Below, piece by piece: positions 19,078 through 49,402 of a stretch of DNA of 64,000 nucleotides (position 1 is the first letter of the stretch; each line of letters opens with the position of its first letter). The DNA is from Escherichia coli 042 (lineage in GTDB: Bacteria; Pseudomonadota; Gammaproteobacteria; Enterobacterales; Enterobacteriaceae). The notes under the pieces were generated by a model. That model was not told where the DNA came from, searched no databases, and was given only the letters and a program-made list of their open reading frames with translations. Location: the NCBI RefSeq assembly GCF_000027125.1, contig NC_017626.1. The stretch is one strand, 5' to 3'. A program made the position numbers and the translations under genes.

Positions 19078-19215
<138 letters not shown>

Positions 19216-35229: not shown

Positions 35230-36285
35230 ATGCGTAAAATCATTCATGTGGATATGGACTGCTTTTTCGCAGCGGTGGAGATGCGCGACAATCCCGCCCT
35301 GCGCGATATCCCTATTGCTATTGGCGGCAGCCGCGAACGTCGGGGGGTGATCAGCACCGCCAATTATCCCGCGCGTAAATTTGGCGTACGTAGCGCTATG
35401 CCGACAGGGATGGCGCTCAAATTTTGCCCACATCTCACGCTGCTTCCAGGGCGCTTTGACGCCTACAAAGAAGCCTCAAATCATATCCGCGAAATTTTCT
35501 CGCGCTATACCTCGCGCATTGAACCGTTATCACTGGATGAAGCCTATCTCGACGTCACCGATAGTGTGCATTGCCACGGTTCTGCGACCCTCATCGCCCA
35601 GGAAATCCGCCAGACGATTTTCAACGAGCTGCAACTGACGGCATCTGCGGGCGTTGCGCCGGTAAAGTTTCTCGCCAAAATTGCTTCCGACATGAATAAA
35701 CCCAACGGTCAGTTTGTGATTACTCCGGCAGAAGTTCCGGCATTTCTGCAAACCTTACCGCTGGCAAAAATTCCTGGCGTCGGCAAAGTCTCGGCGGCAA
35801 AACTGGAAGCGATGGGGCTGCGGACCTGCGGTGATGTGCAAAAGTGTGATCTGGTGACTCTGCTCAAACGTTTTGGCAAATTTGGCCGCATTTTGTGGGA
35901 GCGTAGTCAGGGGATTGACGAGCGCGACGTTAACAGCGAACGGTTGCGAAAATCCGTCGGCGTGGAACGCACGATGGCGGAAGATATTCATCACTGGTCT
36001 GAATGTGAAGCGATTATCGAGCGGCTGTACCCGGAACTTGAACGCCGTCTGGCAAAGGTAAAACCTGATTTACTGATTGCCCGTCAGGGAGTGAAATTAA
36101 AGTTCGACGATTTCCAGCAAACCACTCAGGAGCACGTCTGGCCACGGCTGAATAAAGCTGATCTAATCGCCACCGCGCGTAAAACCTGGGATGAACGCCG
36201 CGGCGGGCGCGGTGTGCGACTGGTGGGGCTGCATGTGACGTTGCTTGACCCTCAAATGGAAAGACAACTGGTGCTGGGATTATGA
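35230..36285 (+). CDS. dinB: DNA polymerase IV
   Basis: 351-aa Y-family polymerase ([33 protein letters not shown]). Confidence 0.95.
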
Positions 36286-36336
36286 TGTATACTATTATGT
36301 CTATTCTGGTGTGCATTATTATGAGGGGATCACTGT

Positions 36337-36630
36337 ATGCATCGAATTCTTGCGGAAAAATCGGTCAATATCACTGAGTTACGTAAAAACCCAGCTAAAT
36401 ACTTTATTGATCAACCAGTTGCGGTTCTTTCTAATAATCGCCCCGCAGGATATCTCTTAAGTGCCAGCGCATTCGAAGCGTTAATGGACATGCTTGCTGA
36501 ACAAGAGGAGAAAAAGCCTATAAAGGCGCGCTTCCGTCCAAGTGCTGCAAGATTAGAGGAAATTACACGCCGAGCTGAAAAATATCTTAATGATATGACG
36601 GATGATGATTTCAATGACTTTAAGGAATAA
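36337..36630 (+). CDS. yafN: YafN antitoxin
   Basis: 97-aa Phd/YefM-like antitoxin located between dinB and yafO. Confidence 0.85.
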   Translation: MHRILAEKSVNITELRKNPAKYFIDQPVAVLSNNRPAGYLLSASAFEALMDMLAEQEEKKPIKARFRPSAARLEEITRRAEKYLNDMTDDDFNDFKE

Positions 36631-36632
36631 GG

Positions 36633-37031
36633 ATGCGGGTATTCAAAACAAAACTCATTCGCCTGCAACTTACAGCAGAGGAACTTGAAGCGTTAACGGC
36701 GGATTTTATTTCCTATAAGCGTGACGGTGTTTTGCCAGATATATTTGGTCGCGATGCACTCTACGACGACTCGTTTACCTGGCCATTAATCAAATTTGAG
36801 CGAGTTGCTCATATTCATCTGGCAAATTAGAATAATCCATTTCCGCCACAGTTGCGCCAATTCAGCAGAACGAATGACGAAGCGCATTTGGTATATTGTC
36901 AGGGTGCGTTTGATGAGCAAGCATGGTTGCTCATTGCCATTCTGAAACCTGAACCTCATAAACTGGCTCGAGATAACAACCAAATGCATAAAATTGGGAA
37001 AATGGCAGAAGCGTTTCGCATGCGTTTTTGA
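36633..37031 (+). pseudogene. yafO: YafO toxin gene interrupted by an in-frame TAG
   Basis: ORF stops at TAG 36828-36830 after 65 codons; same frame stays open for 66 more codons (NNPFPPQLRQFSRTNDEAHLVYCQGAF...MRF) to TGA 37029-37031, 10 bp before yafP. Confidence 0.75.
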
Positions 37032-37040
37032 ATTTATATT

Positions 37041-37493
37041 ATGAATAACATACATATAAGAAACTATCAGCCTGGCGATTTTCAGCAACTATGCGCTATT
37101 TTCCTTCGAGCGGTTACGATGACTGCCAGTCAGCACTATTCTCCACAGCAAATTGCCGCCTGGGCGCAGATTGACGAATCTCGCTGGAAAGATAAACTCG
37201 CGAAATCACAAGTGCGGGTTGCAGTCATTAATGCACAACCGGTTGGTTTTATTTCCCGCATTGAGCATTATATCGATATGTTATTTGTTGACCCTGAATA
37301 CACCCGCCGTGGGGTTGCCAGCGCTTTGTTAAAACCTTTGATTAAGTCTGAATCCGAACTTACGGTGGACGCCAGCATAACCGCAAAGCCCTTTTTTGAA
37401 CGTTATGGTTTTCAGACAGTTAAGCAGCAGTGCGTTGAATGCCGGGGAGCGTGGTTTACTAATTTTTATATGCGATATAAACCGCAACATTAA
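37041..37493 (+). CDS. yafP: GNAT-family acetyltransferase
   Basis: 150-aa ORF with GNAT-like sequence, in dinB-yafN-yafO-yafP order. Confidence 0.88.
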   Translation: MNNIHIRNYQPGDFQQLCAIFLRAVTMTASQHYSPQQIAAWAQIDESRWKDKLAKSQVRVAVINAQPVGFISRIEHYIDMLFVDPEYTRRGVASALLKPLIKSESELTVDASITAKPFFERYGFQTVKQQCVECRGAWFTNFYMRYKPQH

Positions 37494-37569
37494 ATCCAGC
37501 TTGCAATGAAAATAACGCCCGCCTAGTATGTGCGCGTTTTCTTATTCCACAAACTGCAAGGAGGTAAAT

Positions 37570-37617
37570 CATGACAAATCCTTTATCAATGACTCTTTGC
37601 AGACCTTTCCAGGATTA
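37570..37617 (+). CDS. 15-codon small ORF with strong ribosome-binding site (possible leader peptide)
   Basis: AAGGAGGT 5 nt upstream of ATG; encodes MTNPLSMTLCRPFQD; 55 bp upstream of the rtcB-like gene. Confidence 0.3.
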
Positions 37618-37671
37618 ATTCTTTTTTTCTTGCCCTGGATTCGTCTGCCATTTCCTGATTTTTATTCATAA

Positions 37672-38823
37672 ATGGAATGGTTTATGGGCAAATATATTCG
37701 TCCCTTATCCGATGCGGTATTTACCATCGCATCTGATGACCTGTGGATCGAGAGTTTAGCGATCCAACAATTACACACCACGGCAAATTTACCCAACATG
37801 CAGCGCGTAGTAGGGATGCCAGATTTACATCCCGGACGCGGCTACCCGATTGGCGCAGCGTTCTTCTCCGCAGGCCGTTTTTACCCGGCACTGGTCGGCA
37901 ATGATATCGGCTGCGGCATGGCGCTATGGCAAACAGATATTCTCGCTCGCAAATACAACGCCGATAAGTTTGAAAAGCGATTATCAGCTTTGGATGACGT
38001 TGCTGAAGAAAGCTGGCTGGAGGAAAACCTGCCGTCAGCATTTGCACAGCATCCGTGGCGCAGCTCGCTTGGCTCTATCGGTGGCGGAAACCACTTCGCA
38101 GAACTGCAACAAGTTGATGAAATCATCGACGCTGAACTGTTTGCACTGGCAGGTCTGGATGCGCAGCATCTGCAACTGCTGGTTCATAGCGGCTCGAGGG
38201 GGTTGGGGCAGTCTATTTTACAGCGGCATATTGCCTCGTTTTCGCATCATGGTTTGCCTGAAGGCAGTGACGACGCGCTACGGTATATTGCGGAACATGA
38301 CGATGTGCTAGCGTTTGCGCGTATTAATCGCCAGATGATTGCTTTGCGCATAATGCAACAAGTTAAGGCCACCGGAAGTCCGGTTCTGGATGTGGCGCAT
38401 AACTTTGTTAGCGCGTGCCAAATCGGCGATCAACAGGGTTGGTTGCATCGTAAAGGTGCCACGCCGGATGACAACGGTCTGGTGATTATTCCCGGTTCAC
38501 GCGGTGATTACTCCTGGCTTGTACAGCCTGTTGCGAACGAAAAAACGCTCCACTCGCTGGCGCATGGGGCAGGGCGTAAATGGGGGCGCACCGAGTGTAA
38601 AGGGCGTCTGGCAGCGAAATGCACGGCGACGCAACTCTCGCGTACTGAACTTGGCAGTCGGGTAATTTGTCGCGATAAACAACTCATCTTTGAAGAAGCG
38701 CCACAAGCCTATAAATCGGCTGAAAGCGTGGTGCAATGTCTGGTGCAAGCCGGTTTAATTATTCCTGTCGCGCGGCTGCGTCCGGTGCTAACGCTCAAAA
38801 ACAGTGGAGGGAAAAAAGGATGA
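37672..38823 (+). CDS. RtcB-family RNA ligase paralog, full length
   Basis: 383-aa ORF with RtcB-like segments ([25 protein letters not shown]); stop overlaps the prfH start (ATGA). Confidence 0.8.
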
Positions 38824-39434
38824 TCTTGCTACAACTCTCCTCAGCGCAGGGGCCGGAAGAATGTTGCCTCGCAGTGAAAAAGGCGCTGGACAGGTTGATT
38901 AAAGAAGCTACCCGACAAGACGTCGCGATAACGGTGCTGGAAACAGAAACGGGTCGCTACTCTGACACGTTGCGTTCAGCGCTGATTTCTCTGGATGGCG
39001 ATAACGCATGGGCATTAAGCGAAAGTTGGTGCGGCACTATCCAGTGGATTTGTCCGAGTCCGTATCGGCCTCATCATGGGCGCAAAAACTGGTTTCTGGG
39101 CATTGGGCGTTTTACTGCTGATGAGCAGGAACAATCGGATGCAATCCGTTATGAGACGCTGCGTTCGTCGGGGCCGGGCGGTCAACATGTCAATAAAACC
39201 GACTCGGCGGTACGCGCCACGCATCTGGCATCCGGGATTAGCGTGAAGGTTCAGTCAGAGCGCAGCCAACATGCCAACAAACGGCTGGCGCGATTGCTGA
39301 TTGCCTGGAAGCTGGAGCAACAGCAACAGGAAAATAGCGCGGCGCTGAAATCGCAGCGGCGAATGTTCCATCACCAGATTGAACGTGGCAACCCGCGACG
39401 AACGTTTACAGGGATGGCTTTTGTCGCTGTGTAA
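38820..39434 (+). CDS. prfH: Peptide chain release factor homolog H
   Basis: 204-aa ORF with GGQ motif ([16 protein letters not shown]); start [16 protein letters not shown]. Confidence 0.85.
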
Positions 39435-39495
39435 TTGAGGAATGTCTCCCGCCGTTTTCTATATGAAAGCGGCGGGAAAAACGAAAGGAATAGTC

Positions 39496-40005
39496 ATGTT
39501 TATCGGTCATCTTCCGGCTGGTTATTTAATAACTTGTACTTTAATGAAACGCTTGCCACTGATTGCTCGTCATGCGCGCTGGGCGATGGTTATTGGCTTA
39601 CTTGGGGCCGTTGCGCCCGATTTTGATCTTTTTTGGTGCTATCTGGTTGATAACGGGCAACGACATCATCATCTTTACCCGTCTCATTGGCCATTATTAT
39701 GGTTTGCTCTGCTGGCGGCGACATTAGTCTGGGCAGGAATTGCGAAGAATAAACTTCCGGCGTGGCTGGGCGTGGTGTTTTGCCTGAATAGTATCGCGCA
39801 TTTATTACTCGATACGCTGGTCGGTGATATCTGGTGGCTGATGCCTTTCGTTAACCAACCGTTTGCATTCTTTCATATTACGGCGGTACATCATCCGTGG
39901 TGGCTCAATTTTTTATTACACTGGTCGTTTTTACTGGAACTGGCATTAGTGGTTGCCGCCATTGCCATGTGGTGCAGGCGTAATGCCAAAATGGTAAATG
40001 CATGA
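39496..40005 (+). CDS. Inner-membrane protein, possibly membrane-bound metal-dependent hydrolase family
   Basis: 170-aa multi-TM ORF with His-rich motifs (HARWAM, QRHHHLYPSHW, HHPWW); family assignment uncertain. Confidence 0.5.
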   Translation: MFIGHLPAGYLITCTLMKRLPLIARHARWAMVIGLLGAVAPDFDLFWCYLVDNGQRHHHLYPSHWPLLWFALLAATLVWAGIAKNKLPAWLGVVFCLNSIAHLLLDTLVGDIWWLMPFVNQPFAFFHITAVHHPWWLNFLLHWSFLLELALVVAAIAMWCRRNAKMVNA

Positions 40006-40311
40006 AAAAATTATTCTGACTTTAAGCGGCGTAACATGTTTCCTGGGGAAATTCTCCCGTGGTTAAGTATGCTCTCCTGACTTTGCCCCAGGCTCTGAAC
40101 ATATAAAATTTCTGCTTTTCACCCTTAAGTTCTTTCACGGATTCCAGCGCAAAACCTTCTTTGGTGATCAGAAATTCTCCCCATGAAATATGGTCGCAGC
40201 TATATAAATATGCGACCTTTTCATGAGTTTCATAATGTTTTGTTATTTCGATATAGATAGCCATTGGCTTCAAACAGTAGTCCACGCCCGCAGGCGTGGA
40301 CATTATTGTAA

Positions 40312-41769
40312 TTACTTCGCCGGAATTTCTTTCAGCAGTTCAGTCAGTAGTGTCCAGTAATGACCTACGCTTTCGATGTGAACTTGCTCATCCGGAGAGT
40401 GTGGACCGGTGATGGTTGGCCCGATAGAAACCATGTCCATTTCCGGATACGGTTTTTTAAACAGACCACATTCCAGGCCCGCGTGGATAATCTGGATGTT
40501 CGGCGTCTTGTTGAACAGACGCTGATAGGTTTCACGTACCAGATGCATCACCGGAGAATTAGCGTCTGGCTGCCAGCCAGGATATGCGCCTTTCGCTTCG
40601 GTTTTCGCGCCTGCCAGTTTACCCAGCGAATCCAGCATGCTCACCACGTAGTCTTTACCGCTGTCGATCAGAGAACGGATCAGGCAGTGAATTTCTACGT
40701 TATTGTCAGTCATGGTCACCACACCGACGTTCAGGGAGGTTTCGACCACACCTTTTGCCACGTCGGAGTTGCGGATCACACCGTTCGGGGTAGCGTTCAG
40801 CAGACGAATAAAGGTATCGCGAGATTTCGCAATCAGGGCAGCTTTATCGTTCGCAACAGAGTCCAGCAGCAATGCCAGATTTTTCTCTTTCTCTGCCAGC
40901 TCGTTTTTCAGGATCTCCTGATAGGTATTCACCAGAGATTTCAGTGCGTCGACTTTATCAGCTGCGACAGCAATCGTCGCAAAGGCTTCACGCGGGATGG
41001 CGTTACGCAGTGTGCCACCGTTGAAATCGATAAGGCGCAGGTCCAGCTCTTCCGCATGACCCGCCAGGAAGCGCACCAGCAGTTTGTTGGCATTACCCAG
41101 GCCAACGTGGATTTCACCGCCGGAGTGACCGCCTTTTAGACCTTTTAAGGTTAACTTGAAGGTTTCAAAACCAGCTGGAACCGCTTCACGATCTAAATGC
41201 AGGTTGGAGGTGAAGTCGATACCCCCCGCGCAACCCATGTAGATTTCACCTTCTTCTTCGGAGTCGGTGTTAATCAGAATATCAGCCTGCAACCAGTTGC
41301 TCTGTAAGCCGAACGCACCGTCCATACCGGCTTCTTCGGTCATGGTCAGCAGCACTTCCAGCGGGCCGTGAACCACGTTTTCGTCAGCCAGAACCGCCAG
41401 TGCAGAGGCCATACCAATACCGTTATCCGCACCCAGCGTGGTGCCGCGCGCTTTAACCCATTCGCCATCAATATAAGGCTGGATAGGATCTTTAGTGAAG
41501 TCATGCACGGTGTCGTTATTTTTCTGCGGCACCATATCGAGGTGGGCCTGCAAGACGACTGGTTTACGATTTTCCATACCTGCGGTAGCAGGTTTACGAA
41601 TCAGGATATTACCTACCTGATCGCGTTCGACATGGAAACCTTTCTCTTTTGCCCAACCAACAATGTATTCAGCGAGTTGCTCTTCATGATAGGACGGGTG
41701 AGGAATAGAACAGATTTTGGCAAAAATATCCCACAGCGGCTGTGGAGATAATTGAGACAGTTCAGACAC
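40312..41769 (-). CDS. pepD: Cytosol non-specific dipeptidase (Xaa-His dipeptidase)
   Basis: 485-aa M20-family ORF (MSELSQLSPQPLWDIFAKICSIPHPSYHEEQL). Confidence 0.95.
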   Translation of the reverse strand: MSELSQLSPQPLWDIFAKICSIPHPSYHEEQLAEYIVGWAKEKGFHVERDQVGNILIRKPATAGMENRKPVVLQAHLDMVPQKNNDTVHDFTKDPIQPYIDGEWVKARGTTLGADNGIGMASALAVLADENVVHGPLEVLLTMTEEAGMDGAFGLQSNWLQADILINTDSEEEGEIYMGCAGGIDFTSNLHLDREAVPAGFETFKLTLKGLKGGHSGGEIHVGLGNANKLLVRFLAGHAEELDLRLIDFNGGTLRNAIPREAFATIAVAADKVDALKSLVNTYQEILKNELAEKEKNLALLLDSVANDKAALIAKSRDTFIRLLNATPNGVIRNSDVAKGVVETSLNVGVVTMTDNNVEIHCLIRSLIDSGKDYVVSMLDSLGKLAGAKTEAKGAYPGWQPDANSPVMHLVRETYQRLFNKTPNIQIIHAGLECGLFKKPYPEMDMVSIGPTITGPHSPDEQVHIESVGHYWTLLTELLKEIPAK

Positions 41770-48147: not shown

Positions 48148-48223
48148 GCCGATATAGCTCAGTTGGTAGAGCAGCGCATTCGTAATGCGAAGGTCGTAGG
48201 TTCGACTCCTATTATCGGCACCA
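48148..48223 (+). tRNA. thrW: tRNA-Thr (anticodon CGT)
   Basis: GCCGATATAGCTCAGTTGGTAGAGCAGCGCATTCGTAATGCGAAGGTCGTAGGTTCGACTCCTATTATCGGCACCA; cloverleaf with CGT anticodon and 3' CCA. Confidence 0.95.
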
Positions 48224-49059: not shown

Positions 49060-49260
49060 GCAACCTCCGATAAGTGGGTGTTCAAGCCACCACCGGAGAG
49101 GCTAATCTCGCGGGTGGTGGAACCGGGCAGGGTTAGCCTTACCAGCCTTATCGGACACTGGCGCGTCTTGCGACGCCCCCGCCCGGCCCACCATTGAGAT
49201 GTAACCGTGCGAACAACACAAAAAAAGACGCTGGCGCGTCATGTGTCGCCGATAAGATTT
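49060..49260. repeat. Cluster of degenerate REP-like palindromic units and hairpins
   Basis: GACACTGGCGCGTCTTGCGACGCC (49155-49178) and GACGCTGGCGCGTCATGTGTCGCC (49227-49250); CCGATAAG/CTTATCGG three times; 8-bp inverted repeat CCACCACC/GGTGGTGG (49087-49094/49113-49120); minus-strand GACGC-loop-GCGTC hairpin followed by T7 (49221-49241). Confidence 0.65.
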
Positions 49261-49402
49261 CTTCAGGAGGCTAATCCCGACGCCTGATTTTGCAGGCGCG
49301 GGAGAAAGATACTGCGATTGGTCATGAGTGGCAAGGGCTACATCATGTTTACCGACATCTCACGCAAAAATACCCTGATTATTAATAGCGAAAATCAGTT
49401 TC

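Follow-up and report, generated by a model that had tools for sequence, protein, structure and literature searches.

A conserved leader open reading frame and alternative RNA helices predict ribosome-dependent translational attenuation of the rtcB2-prfH operon in Escherichia coli 042

How does a cell decide to make RtcB2 and PrfH, the RNA ligase and the release factor that rescue and repair ribosomes with damaged 16S rRNA? The question is raised by an intact rtcB2-prfH operon in a 64,000-nucleotide stretch of the Escherichia coli 042 chromosome (hereafter, the window; NCBI RefSeq assembly GCF_000027125.1, contig NC_017626.1), and it is not addressed in the functional literature that we searched. 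The operon was first noted by Baranov et al. in 2006 (PMC1586002). PrfH frees the peptide solely from 70S ribosomes in which the 16S rRNA has been cut between A1493 and G1494, with any codon in the A site; this cut is made by colicin E3 or CdiA-CT, RtcB2 religates the freed 30S subunit, and the pair protects cells against colicin E3-type toxins (PMC9304027, PMC9223846). The functional studies consulted relied on plasmid over-expression or knockouts, and the RtcB2-PrfH literature searched, including follow-ups from 2026, contains no mention of a promoter, leader, upstream open reading frame (uORF) or native regulation. A preliminary description of the window, made from the sequence alone, had pointed to a small uORF in front of the operon that could act as a translation-sensing leader. 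The comparative and folding evidence presented here favors, on balance, the reading that the leader of about 150 nucleotides (nt) preceding rtcB2-prfH is a ribosome-dependent translational attenuator.

The uORF is preceded, at a distance of 5 nt, by the Shine-Dalgarno (SD) sequence AAGGAGGT (coordinates of this and all other leader features are given in Table 1). Its 15 codons and near-perfect ribosome-binding site are as the preliminary description had them, and the distance given there, 55 bp upstream of rtcB2, requires correction: the uORF stop lies 65 nt before the rtcB2 ATG at 37684, or 53 nt before the alternative ATG at 37672. We collected 21 rtcB2 loci from three proteobacterial classes by hand, via protein matches with their encoding contigs and plasmid tblastn searches, and found a uORF in all 21 (gamma-, beta- and alphaproteobacteria), with 11-18 codons and at 110-150 nt 5' of rtcB2. 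A uORF of exactly 15 codons in the same place, with the SD AAGGRGGU, is present in four other Escherichia lineages, Citrobacter, two Klebsiella species and an Enterobacteriaceae metagenome-assembled genome; uORFs also occur in Salmonella, Intestinirhabdus, Kosakonia, Cronobacter, Entomohabitans, Providencia, Proteus, Limnobaculum, Pseudomonas and Ralstonia, and further in a Klebsiella pneumoniae IncC plasmid, Microbulbifer, Methylosinus, Shinella, Rhizobium and Tritonibacter. No such uORF was found at the rtcB2 locus of Skermanella, and in Novosphingobium rtcB2 directly follows another open reading frame (ORF), with no leader.

A second, leader-agnostic sample was drawn from metagenomes by scanning with a degenerate DNA pattern that encodes GNDIGCGM, an RtcB2 motif located inside the gene. 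A uORF was counted in this sample if it started with ATG, was preceded by an SD, comprised 8-25 codons and lay 60-300 nt upstream. Among close operons (at least 50% identity to the E. coli protein), 36 of the 42 unique upstream regions contained a uORF, against 5 in the reverse complement, 2.6 in shuffled sequences and 2 of 34 inside the gene; in some of the apparent negatives, the uORF is further upstream or the rtcB2 start is uncertain. Conservation of the small ORF, which the preliminary description had proposed as a check, thus held strongly in both samples. Short ORFs are common, and this one has no RefSeq annotation, but the enrichment over the controls excludes chance, and the SD and ATG are invariant across the classes. 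Together with the features of the peptide described next, this makes it hardly credible that the uORF is a chance ORF, or encodes a trans-acting peptide, within a leader that has no cis-regulatory role.

The conservation of the leader lies in RNA sequence and structure, not in the peptide. Codons 2-8 of the uORF contain no in-frame stops in the 21 hand-collected leaders, compared with 16 and 7 stops in the other two frames, and the N-terminal codons vary freely while remaining free of stops. Of 71 unique uORFs, 43 contain the motif UUUGC(A/G)G, but not always in the same frame: it encodes Leu-Cys-Arg in 30 of them and Phe-Ala-Gly in the other 13, which argues against a peptide acting in trans. 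The motif always begins at least 22 nt past the uORF ATG, that is, just beyond the edge of an initiating ribosome. On its 5' side, the SD is extended to G(C/U)A(A/G)(A)GGAG in 39 of the 71 unique leaders. Considering that the peptide is not conserved and that the shared motif occurs in two frames, the leader is attenuator-like but is no arrest-peptide leader of the erm/cat type; stalling by a specific nascent peptide together with an inducer was not supported. The suggestion of a translation-sensing leader is strengthened by the conservation of the uORF and by the covarying helices that connect it to the rtcB2 start, with the correction that it is the RNA that is conserved.

Four segments of the leader are predicted to form alternative helices, with segments 2 and 3 each having two mutually exclusive partners. 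The predicted ground state combines pairing of segments 1 and 2 (1:2) with pairing of segments 3 and 4 (3:4), both in single-sequence and in consensus folds of nearly all gamma- and betaproteobacterial leaders. The alternative is the helix between element A, the 3' part of segment 2, and element B within segment 3 (A:B). We assessed these pairings in a gapless, hand-anchored block alignment of 19 leaders, for which all statistics, computed on related sequences, are uncorrected for phylogeny. The six core pairs of A:B (GCAGAC:GUCUGC) are formed in all 19 leaders, with changes on both sides at three of the six; none of 500 shuffles matched the observed values, and slid registers pair in at most 45% of cases, compared with 84.6% in the true register. 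An alignment-free count led to the same helix: a perfect 6-bp complement of the GCNGNN hexamer occurs downstream in 42 of the 43 motif-bearing leaders, where 8.0 were expected from shuffling. This complement comprises 11 covarying pair types (for example, GCAGGU/ACCUGC, GCAGCC/GGCUGC and GCGGGC/GCCCGC) and ends at a median of 40 nt 5' of the rtcB2 AUG. The inner CCAGG/CCUGG helix is paired in 78% of the alignment cells, with both sides changed at four of its five pairs.

The competing helices are formed by more constrained sequences. Segments 1 and 2 are paired in 88% of the cells, with changes mostly to G-U. Segment 3 is complementary to the rtcB2 initiation region, GGAAUGG...AUGGGCAA, and the outer pairs of the 3:4 helix are paired in 98.7% and the inner pairs in 83% of the cells. 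The start region UGGAWUGGUAUAUGGGCAA is nearly invariant, and the CCAWWUCC of segment 3 pairs better with the start region of its own class (GGAAUGG or GGAUUGG) in 16 of 16 cases. We had initially drawn the outer part of this helix as GUCU:GGGC; in many species, this is not the preference of the folding program, and UUGCCC:GGGCAA is the alternative. Since there are two candidate partners, the whole of segment 3 is given as the anti-start-site element.

Natural insertions are confined to the predicted loops. In K-12, two other Escherichia lineages and K. spallanzanii, an ERIC/IRU-like repeat of about 127 bp, reduced to shorter remnants in two of these genomes, separates segment 3 from segment 4. 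Either insertion recurs at this site or the loop tolerates it; the window carries no ERIC insertion there. In Intestinirhabdus, an insert of about 170 nt occupies the loop of the A:B hairpin.

Table 1. Coordinates of the rtcB2-prfH operon, its leader and flanking genes in the window (A and B, the two strands of the alternative helix)
Feature	Position	Strand	Basis or remark
dinB	35230-36285		
yafP	37041-37493		
Predicted sigma-70 promoter of the operon: -35 TTGCAA (37501-37506), 17-bp spacer, -10 TAGTAT (37524-37529)	37501-37529	+	Sequence; recurrence in relatives
Segment 1: CUGCAAGGAG (37554-37563), overlapping the uORF SD AAGGAGGU (37558-37565)	37554-37565	+	Pairs with segment 2 in minimum-energy folds
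Leader ORF (uORF), 15 codons and TAA: MTNPLSMTLCRPFQD	ATG 37571, TAA 37616-37618	+	Conserved position, SD, ATG and length
Segment 2: CUCUUUGCAG (37593-37602, uORF codons 8-11), predicted to pair with segment 1; 3' part GCAGAC = A (37599-37604), predicted to pair with B	37593-37604	+	
Inner helix: CCAGG (37609-37613) / CCUGG (37634-37638), and loop	37609-37638	+	Predicted to extend A:B into a long hairpin that includes the uORF stop codon
Segment 3, predicted anti-start-site region: UUGCCCUGGAUUCGUCUGCCAUUUCC; B = GUCUGC (37643-37648); CCAUUUCC (37648-37655)	37630-37655	+	
Segment 4, rtcB2 initiation region: AAAUGGAAUGGUUUAUGGGCAA; weak SD-like GGA, start codon at 37684	37670-37691	+	
rtcB2, release-factor-H-coupled RtcB-family RNA ligase, intact, 379 amino acids	37684-38823	+	NF007153, TIGR03073, His294, RefSeq start
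prfH, peptide chain release factor H, 204 amino acids, GGQ at 120-122	38820-39434	+	TIGR03072, PDB 7SA4

The A:B hairpin also contains a conserved 4x4 internal loop, which bears on a different explanation, namely that the leader RNA is an operator to which a protein binds (RtcB2, PrfH or some other factor), for instance as a mimic of the 16S decoding-site region (helix 44), with the uORF incidental or secondary. Autoregulation by rRNA mimicry is the rule for ribosomal-protein operons, and short likenesses to 16S positions 1400-1420 can be seen by eye only. An operator, however, leaves unexplained the invariant SD and ATG, the constrained length and stop position of the uORF, and the exclusive partners of segments 2 and 3; we regard this explanation as very unlikely.

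The effect of a ribosome on the leader was estimated by modeling it as a block from -15 to +15 around the P site and taking the cost of opening the rtcB2 start as the ensemble free energy needed to unpair positions -13 to +6. In the 21 hand-collected leaders, the predicted cost is 10.4 kcal/mol for the free RNA; a ribosome at the uORF start lowers it to 7.1, and one at the uORF stop raises it to 11.1. The respective values for 56 metagenome leaders, which were independent of model building, are 9.3, 7.0 and 10.0 kcal/mol; with the start occupied, the cost drops by over 1 kcal/mol in 41 of these 56 and goes up in 3 (Wilcoxon p = 8e-8, not corrected for phylogeny). When the uORF start is occupied, the probability of the GCAGAC:GUCUGC helix increases from 0.08 to 0.82. 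In a scan of P-site positions, the cost is low at codons 1-5, except for a spike of 10.0 at codon 3, and is at least 10.4 from codon 6 onward, where the footprint reaches GCAG. A strict automatic three-step test of the switch was passed by few of the metagenome leaders because only 4 of the approximately 10 segment-2 bases re-pair.

These estimates bear on a simpler scheme, in which the uORF is a constitutive helper: ribosomes translating it would open up the leader structure and supply the weak rtcB2 start with ribosomes, whether delivered or recruited, by coupling or standby, without sensing anything. Such a scheme fits the very weak SD of rtcB2 and the near-perfect SD of the uORF, and coupling by strong upstream ribosome-binding sites is known (PMC13285730). 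We nevertheless consider it unlikely: 65 nt separate the uORF stop from the rtcB2 AUG, a terminating ribosome is predicted to let the start site close (11.1 against 10.4 kcal/mol for the free RNA), and simple coupling needs neither a covarying A:B helix nor sequestration of the SD of the uORF itself.

Under the attenuation reading that we favor, segment 1 of the naked RNA, comprising the uORF SD with its 5' extension, would pair with segment 2 (uORF codons 8-11), and segment 3 (UUGCCC...GUCUGCCAUUUCC) would mask segment 4, with the weak rtcB2 ribosome-binding site and AUG, such that RtcB2 and the coupled PrfH would be poorly translated. A ribosome held at the start of the uORF or within roughly its first five codons would cover segment 1; the freed GCAGAC would then take GUCUGC into the long hairpin, and the rtcB2 start site would be released. 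Once the ribosome had moved on to the end of the uORF, it would cover segment 2, bringing back the off state. With the start-occupied state on and the end-occupied state off, the leader would thus read the dwell of ribosomes at initiation and early elongation.

The genes, the conservation of the uORF, the covarying helices and the predicted energetics are demonstrated by the analysis; beyond these, we infer translation of the uORF, an effect at the level of translation, decoding-defective ribosomes of the kind produced by colicin E3 as the natural trigger, and a reset of the switch by PrfH, which would release these ribosomes. The operon repairs a lesion that blocks A-site decoding and not initiation, and PrfH is active on damaged-ribosome complexes carrying fMet-tRNA in the P site, as published work on this factor shows; a damaged ribosome parked on the uORF start is therefore the most economical trigger. 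Ribosomes cut by E3 or CdiA-CT would initiate at the strong uORF SD, fail to decode the next codons and park at the uORF start. The parked ribosome would flip the RNA to the A:B conformer, and the remaining intact ribosomes would make RtcB2 and PrfH. PrfH would then release the parked ribosome and so reset the switch, such that the damaged ribosome would be both signal and substrate in a self-limiting circuit. That the leader is a direct sensor of decoding-center damage is, however, a considerably more doubtful proposition than attenuation as such, and we offer it as a tentative one.

Several observations weigh against the attenuation reading or its details. The aligned leaders are related, as mentioned, and the folding model assumes a footprint of -15 to +15 and equilibrium folding. 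Some lineages (Pseudomonas, Ralstonia, Methylosinus and many distant operons) show little or no predicted energetic effect. Segments 1:2 and 3:4 are nearly invariant and accordingly show little true covariation, and the partner of the AUGGGC start is ambiguous, either GUCU or UUGCCC. Taken alone, the E. coli leader does not fold significantly better than its shuffles (z = -1.64). Among distant operons (35-50% identity), only 17 of 43 have a detectable uORF, compared with about 5 in controls. The uORF (position 253240) is not listed in the K-12 small-ORF supplement. Finally, the model gives no account of how the intact ribosomes would suffice to translate the operon during damage. The Term-seq supplement contains nothing for yafP, ykfJ or prfH.

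In the distant metagenome operons (about 40% identity), we observed a different uORF family, MLANxxxxVKTR, of 12-14 codons, with the same AGCAAAGGAG extension of the SD. Leaders of this type contain an overlapping TTG-initiated ORF, and the E. coli-type 1:2 helix is not predicted in them.

Known attenuators share part of this architecture. Leaders of the ermC/cat type consist of a leader ORF with its own SD and of four segments that form either 1:2 and 3:4 or 2:3, with an early stall freeing segment 2. The rtcB2 leader resembles them in its short uORF with its own SD and in four predicted segments, of which segment 4 holds the start site. It differs from them in that segment 1 is the SD region of the leader itself and not leader codons, in the lack of a conserved peptide or a known drug, in a predicted inducing window that extends from initiation to codon 5, and in controlling genes that repair ribosomes instead of modifying ribosomes or a drug. 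Both a conserved leader ORF with its own ribosome-binding site and mutually exclusive helices that involve leader-ORF sequence are found here. A conformer with a sequestered start site is predicted in nearly all folds, with conserved pairing, and its covariation is limited by the near-invariant start side and the ambiguous partner of AUGGGC. In the model, stalling of a ribosome within the leader changes the fold and would induce rtcB2, the opening cost falling by 2-4 kcal/mol.

The attenuators of trp, his and pheA likewise combine a leader peptide with alternative RNA helices, but the final helix of the rtcB2 leader is predicted to sequester the start site instead of terminating transcription. 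The RtcB1 system, rtcBA, is under transcriptional control by the sigma-54 activator RtcR. The rtcB2 leader would be comparable to it in providing stress-inducible control of an RtcB repair ligase; no rtcR is adjacent in the rtcB2 loci examined, and the leader occupies the place in which one would look for a sensor. The E. coli leader toiL, upstream of topAI-yjhQ, has a sequence-tolerant uORF that senses ribosome stalling and controls downstream translation, as is modeled here for rtcB2, and differs in also involving Rho termination, in responding to several antibiotics and in the downstream system, without sequence or structural similarity between the two leaders (PMC12121999).

The case of toiL leads to the least improbable of the alternatives, a leader that operates at the level of transcription, in which translation of the uORF or stalling on it would control premature termination, either Rho-dependent, as in toiL-topAI or tnaC, or intrinsic, with pairing at the start site secondary. 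Rho polarity typically arises where a uORF near the promoter precedes a gene that is poorly translated (PMC12121999), and the region 3' of segment 3 is U-rich even in the GC-rich Pseudomonas and Ralstonia. However, no terminator-like site was called within 37494-37683, and this interval contains neither a terminator hairpin with a direct U-tract nor runs of regulatory codons, the hallmarks of classical attenuators. The U-run is located 8-12 nt past the A:B stem, not directly after it, and forms the loop of the 3:4 helix, and the complementarity of segment 3 to the rtcB2 start region has no role in a purely terminational model. Control by transcription termination thus appears improbable as the primary mechanism, and Rho effects could amplify a translational switch.

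A putative sigma-70 promoter begins 8 nt past the yafP stop, with the GC-rich discriminator GTGCGCG following the -10 element, and the transcript is predicted to start near 37536. The generic promoter scan did not call this promoter, which matches at 8 of 12 positions only. The arrangement TTGCxx-17-TAnnAT recurs 40-53 nt 5' of the uORF ATG in about 15 gamma- and betaproteobacterial loci with otherwise differing neighbors. GC-rich discriminators corresponding to positions 37530-37536 recur in other loci as well (GTGCGCG, ACGCGCA, GCCCGCG and similar). They are of the kind found in rRNA and ribosomal-protein promoters under stringent control, and the discriminator may tie expression of the operon to ribosome synthesis.

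Outside the Enterobacteriaceae, the operon lies among varying neighbor genes, and the leader thus moves together with it; the predicted promoter, the leader and the operon form one mobile unit. On the K. pneumoniae IncC plasmid pKpnB4_3 (849-2712), a divergent rtcB2-prfH (53% identity) with its own uORF leader is located directly upstream of sul1; this is a conjugative resistance plasmid, which shows that the module, leader included, spreads on resistance plasmids. On a Shinella plasmid, a second RtcB-family gene (1-694) lies immediately 5' of the leader and rtcB2-prfH. In E. coli strain MS 198-1, which is otherwise identical to the stretch studied here, an IS1 element is inserted directly after the ATGGG of rtcB2, cutting the operon off from the leader.

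The gene pair downstream of the leader is the already known RtcB2-PrfH module, ordinary for E. coli and intact here. RtcB2 scored 637.7 bits against the NCBIfam model NF007153 (cut-off 407) and 616.1 bits against TIGR03073 (cut-off 271.8), the model for the RtcB subfamily that occurs with release factor H. The longest ORF, 37672-38823, encodes 383 amino acids, the length given in the preliminary description. That assignment to the RtcB family stands, and the length does not: the ATG at 37672 is not conserved (it is missing in Citrobacter, Intestinirhabdus and others), and the ATG at 37684, also annotated by RefSeq, is conserved. This start is preferred because residue 294, mutated by Tian et al., is a histidine only in the 379-residue numbering, so that the protein is most likely one of 379 residues. 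PrfH, for which a 204-residue release-factor homolog with a GGQ motif had been proposed correctly, scored 328.8 bits against TIGR03072 (NCBIfam, cut-off 166.65) and matched the PrfH chain (chain 8) of the cryo-EM structure PDB 7SA4 with E = 2e-135 and three substitutions over 202 aligned residues (~98.5% identity); it is a class-I release-factor homolog that lacks domain 1. The ATG of prfH overlaps the TGA of rtcB2 in an ATGA at 38820-38823 (AAGGATGATCT), which confirms the overlap that had been noted, and the same arrangement is found in relatives. The catalytic His294 of RtcB2 (379-residue numbering) and Gln122 of PrfH (204-residue numbering), both mutated in PMC9304027, are present.

Thus, the genes, their order, overlap, family models and catalytic residues are those of the module characterized by Tian et al. 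2022 (PMC9304027) and Maviza et al. 2022 (PMC9223846), which agrees with the ribosome rescue-and-repair function named in the preliminary description; the chromosomal site is that of E. coli ATCC 25922 and CFT073, and the proteins show no difference. Near-identity to the tested ATCC 25922 proteins suggests that the copies in the window would likewise protect against colicin E3 and CdiA-CT. In K-12, as had been stated, both genes are degraded, with only fragments remaining. At least 80% of the region is present in 2,709 of 5,426 complete E. coli genomes. No PADLOC defense-system model matched rtcB2-prfH or the two genes downstream. The rtcB_2 gene of an Acinetobacter desiccation study was considered and set aside as a different, Rsr-linked paralog.

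The gene order around the operon is dinB, yafN, yafO, yafP, a 190-nt gap, rtcB2, prfH, two small genes and, on the opposite strand, pepD. In yafO (36633-37031), which encodes the toxin of the yafNO pair, there is an in-frame stop after codon 65, whereas yafN (36337-36630), which encodes the antitoxin, is undamaged. The yafO defect is also marked by RefSeq in strain MS 198-1. The two genes between prfH and pepD encode a 169-residue protein annotated as a 'metal-dependent hydrolase' that resembles membrane proteins (39496-40005, plus strand) and a 93-residue hypothetical protein (40022-40303, minus strand). Neither matched an NCBIfam or PADLOC model, and both are absent from K-12, Salmonella, Kosakonia, Cronobacter and Entomohabitans, where prfH directly adjoins pepD. 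Just 3' of the prfH stop, a perfect 7-bp GC-rich hairpin, CCCGCCG...CGGCGGG (39450-39478), occurs without a U-tract and may be an operon-end or REP-like element. Elsewhere in the window, a tRNA-Thr(CGU) gene at 48148-48223 is followed, about 1 kb downstream, by Rfam matches to the C4 antisense RNA and isrK, both on the minus strand (49110-49299); this combination is typical of a prophage element, P4-like or other, integrated at thrW. The Rfam family naRNA4, a nucleoid-associated, REP-derived RNA, is matched at 19083-19159 with 78 bits.

What is new at this locus is the conserved, covarying leader. It matches no Rfam 15 family, neither at E <= 1 in a covariance search of 36000-41000 nor in the region at the gathering score, and it is not described in the literature searched, in which we found neither the peptide nor any paper linking rtcB2 or prfH with a leader, uORF or attenuator. 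It defines an RNA family suitable for Rfam, and it suggests a concrete answer to the question of how production of RtcB2-PrfH is decided. A unit of promoter, leader and operon would explain why the module moves between genomes and plasmids as one. The leader could also be used to report damage to the decoding site, or to detect drugs by which ribosomes are trapped at start codons. If the proposed mechanism is true, ribotoxin damage would be a new physiological input to leader-ORF attenuators, and the translation apparatus would report its own damage via a generic initiation stall, without a dedicated regulator protein or an arrest peptide.

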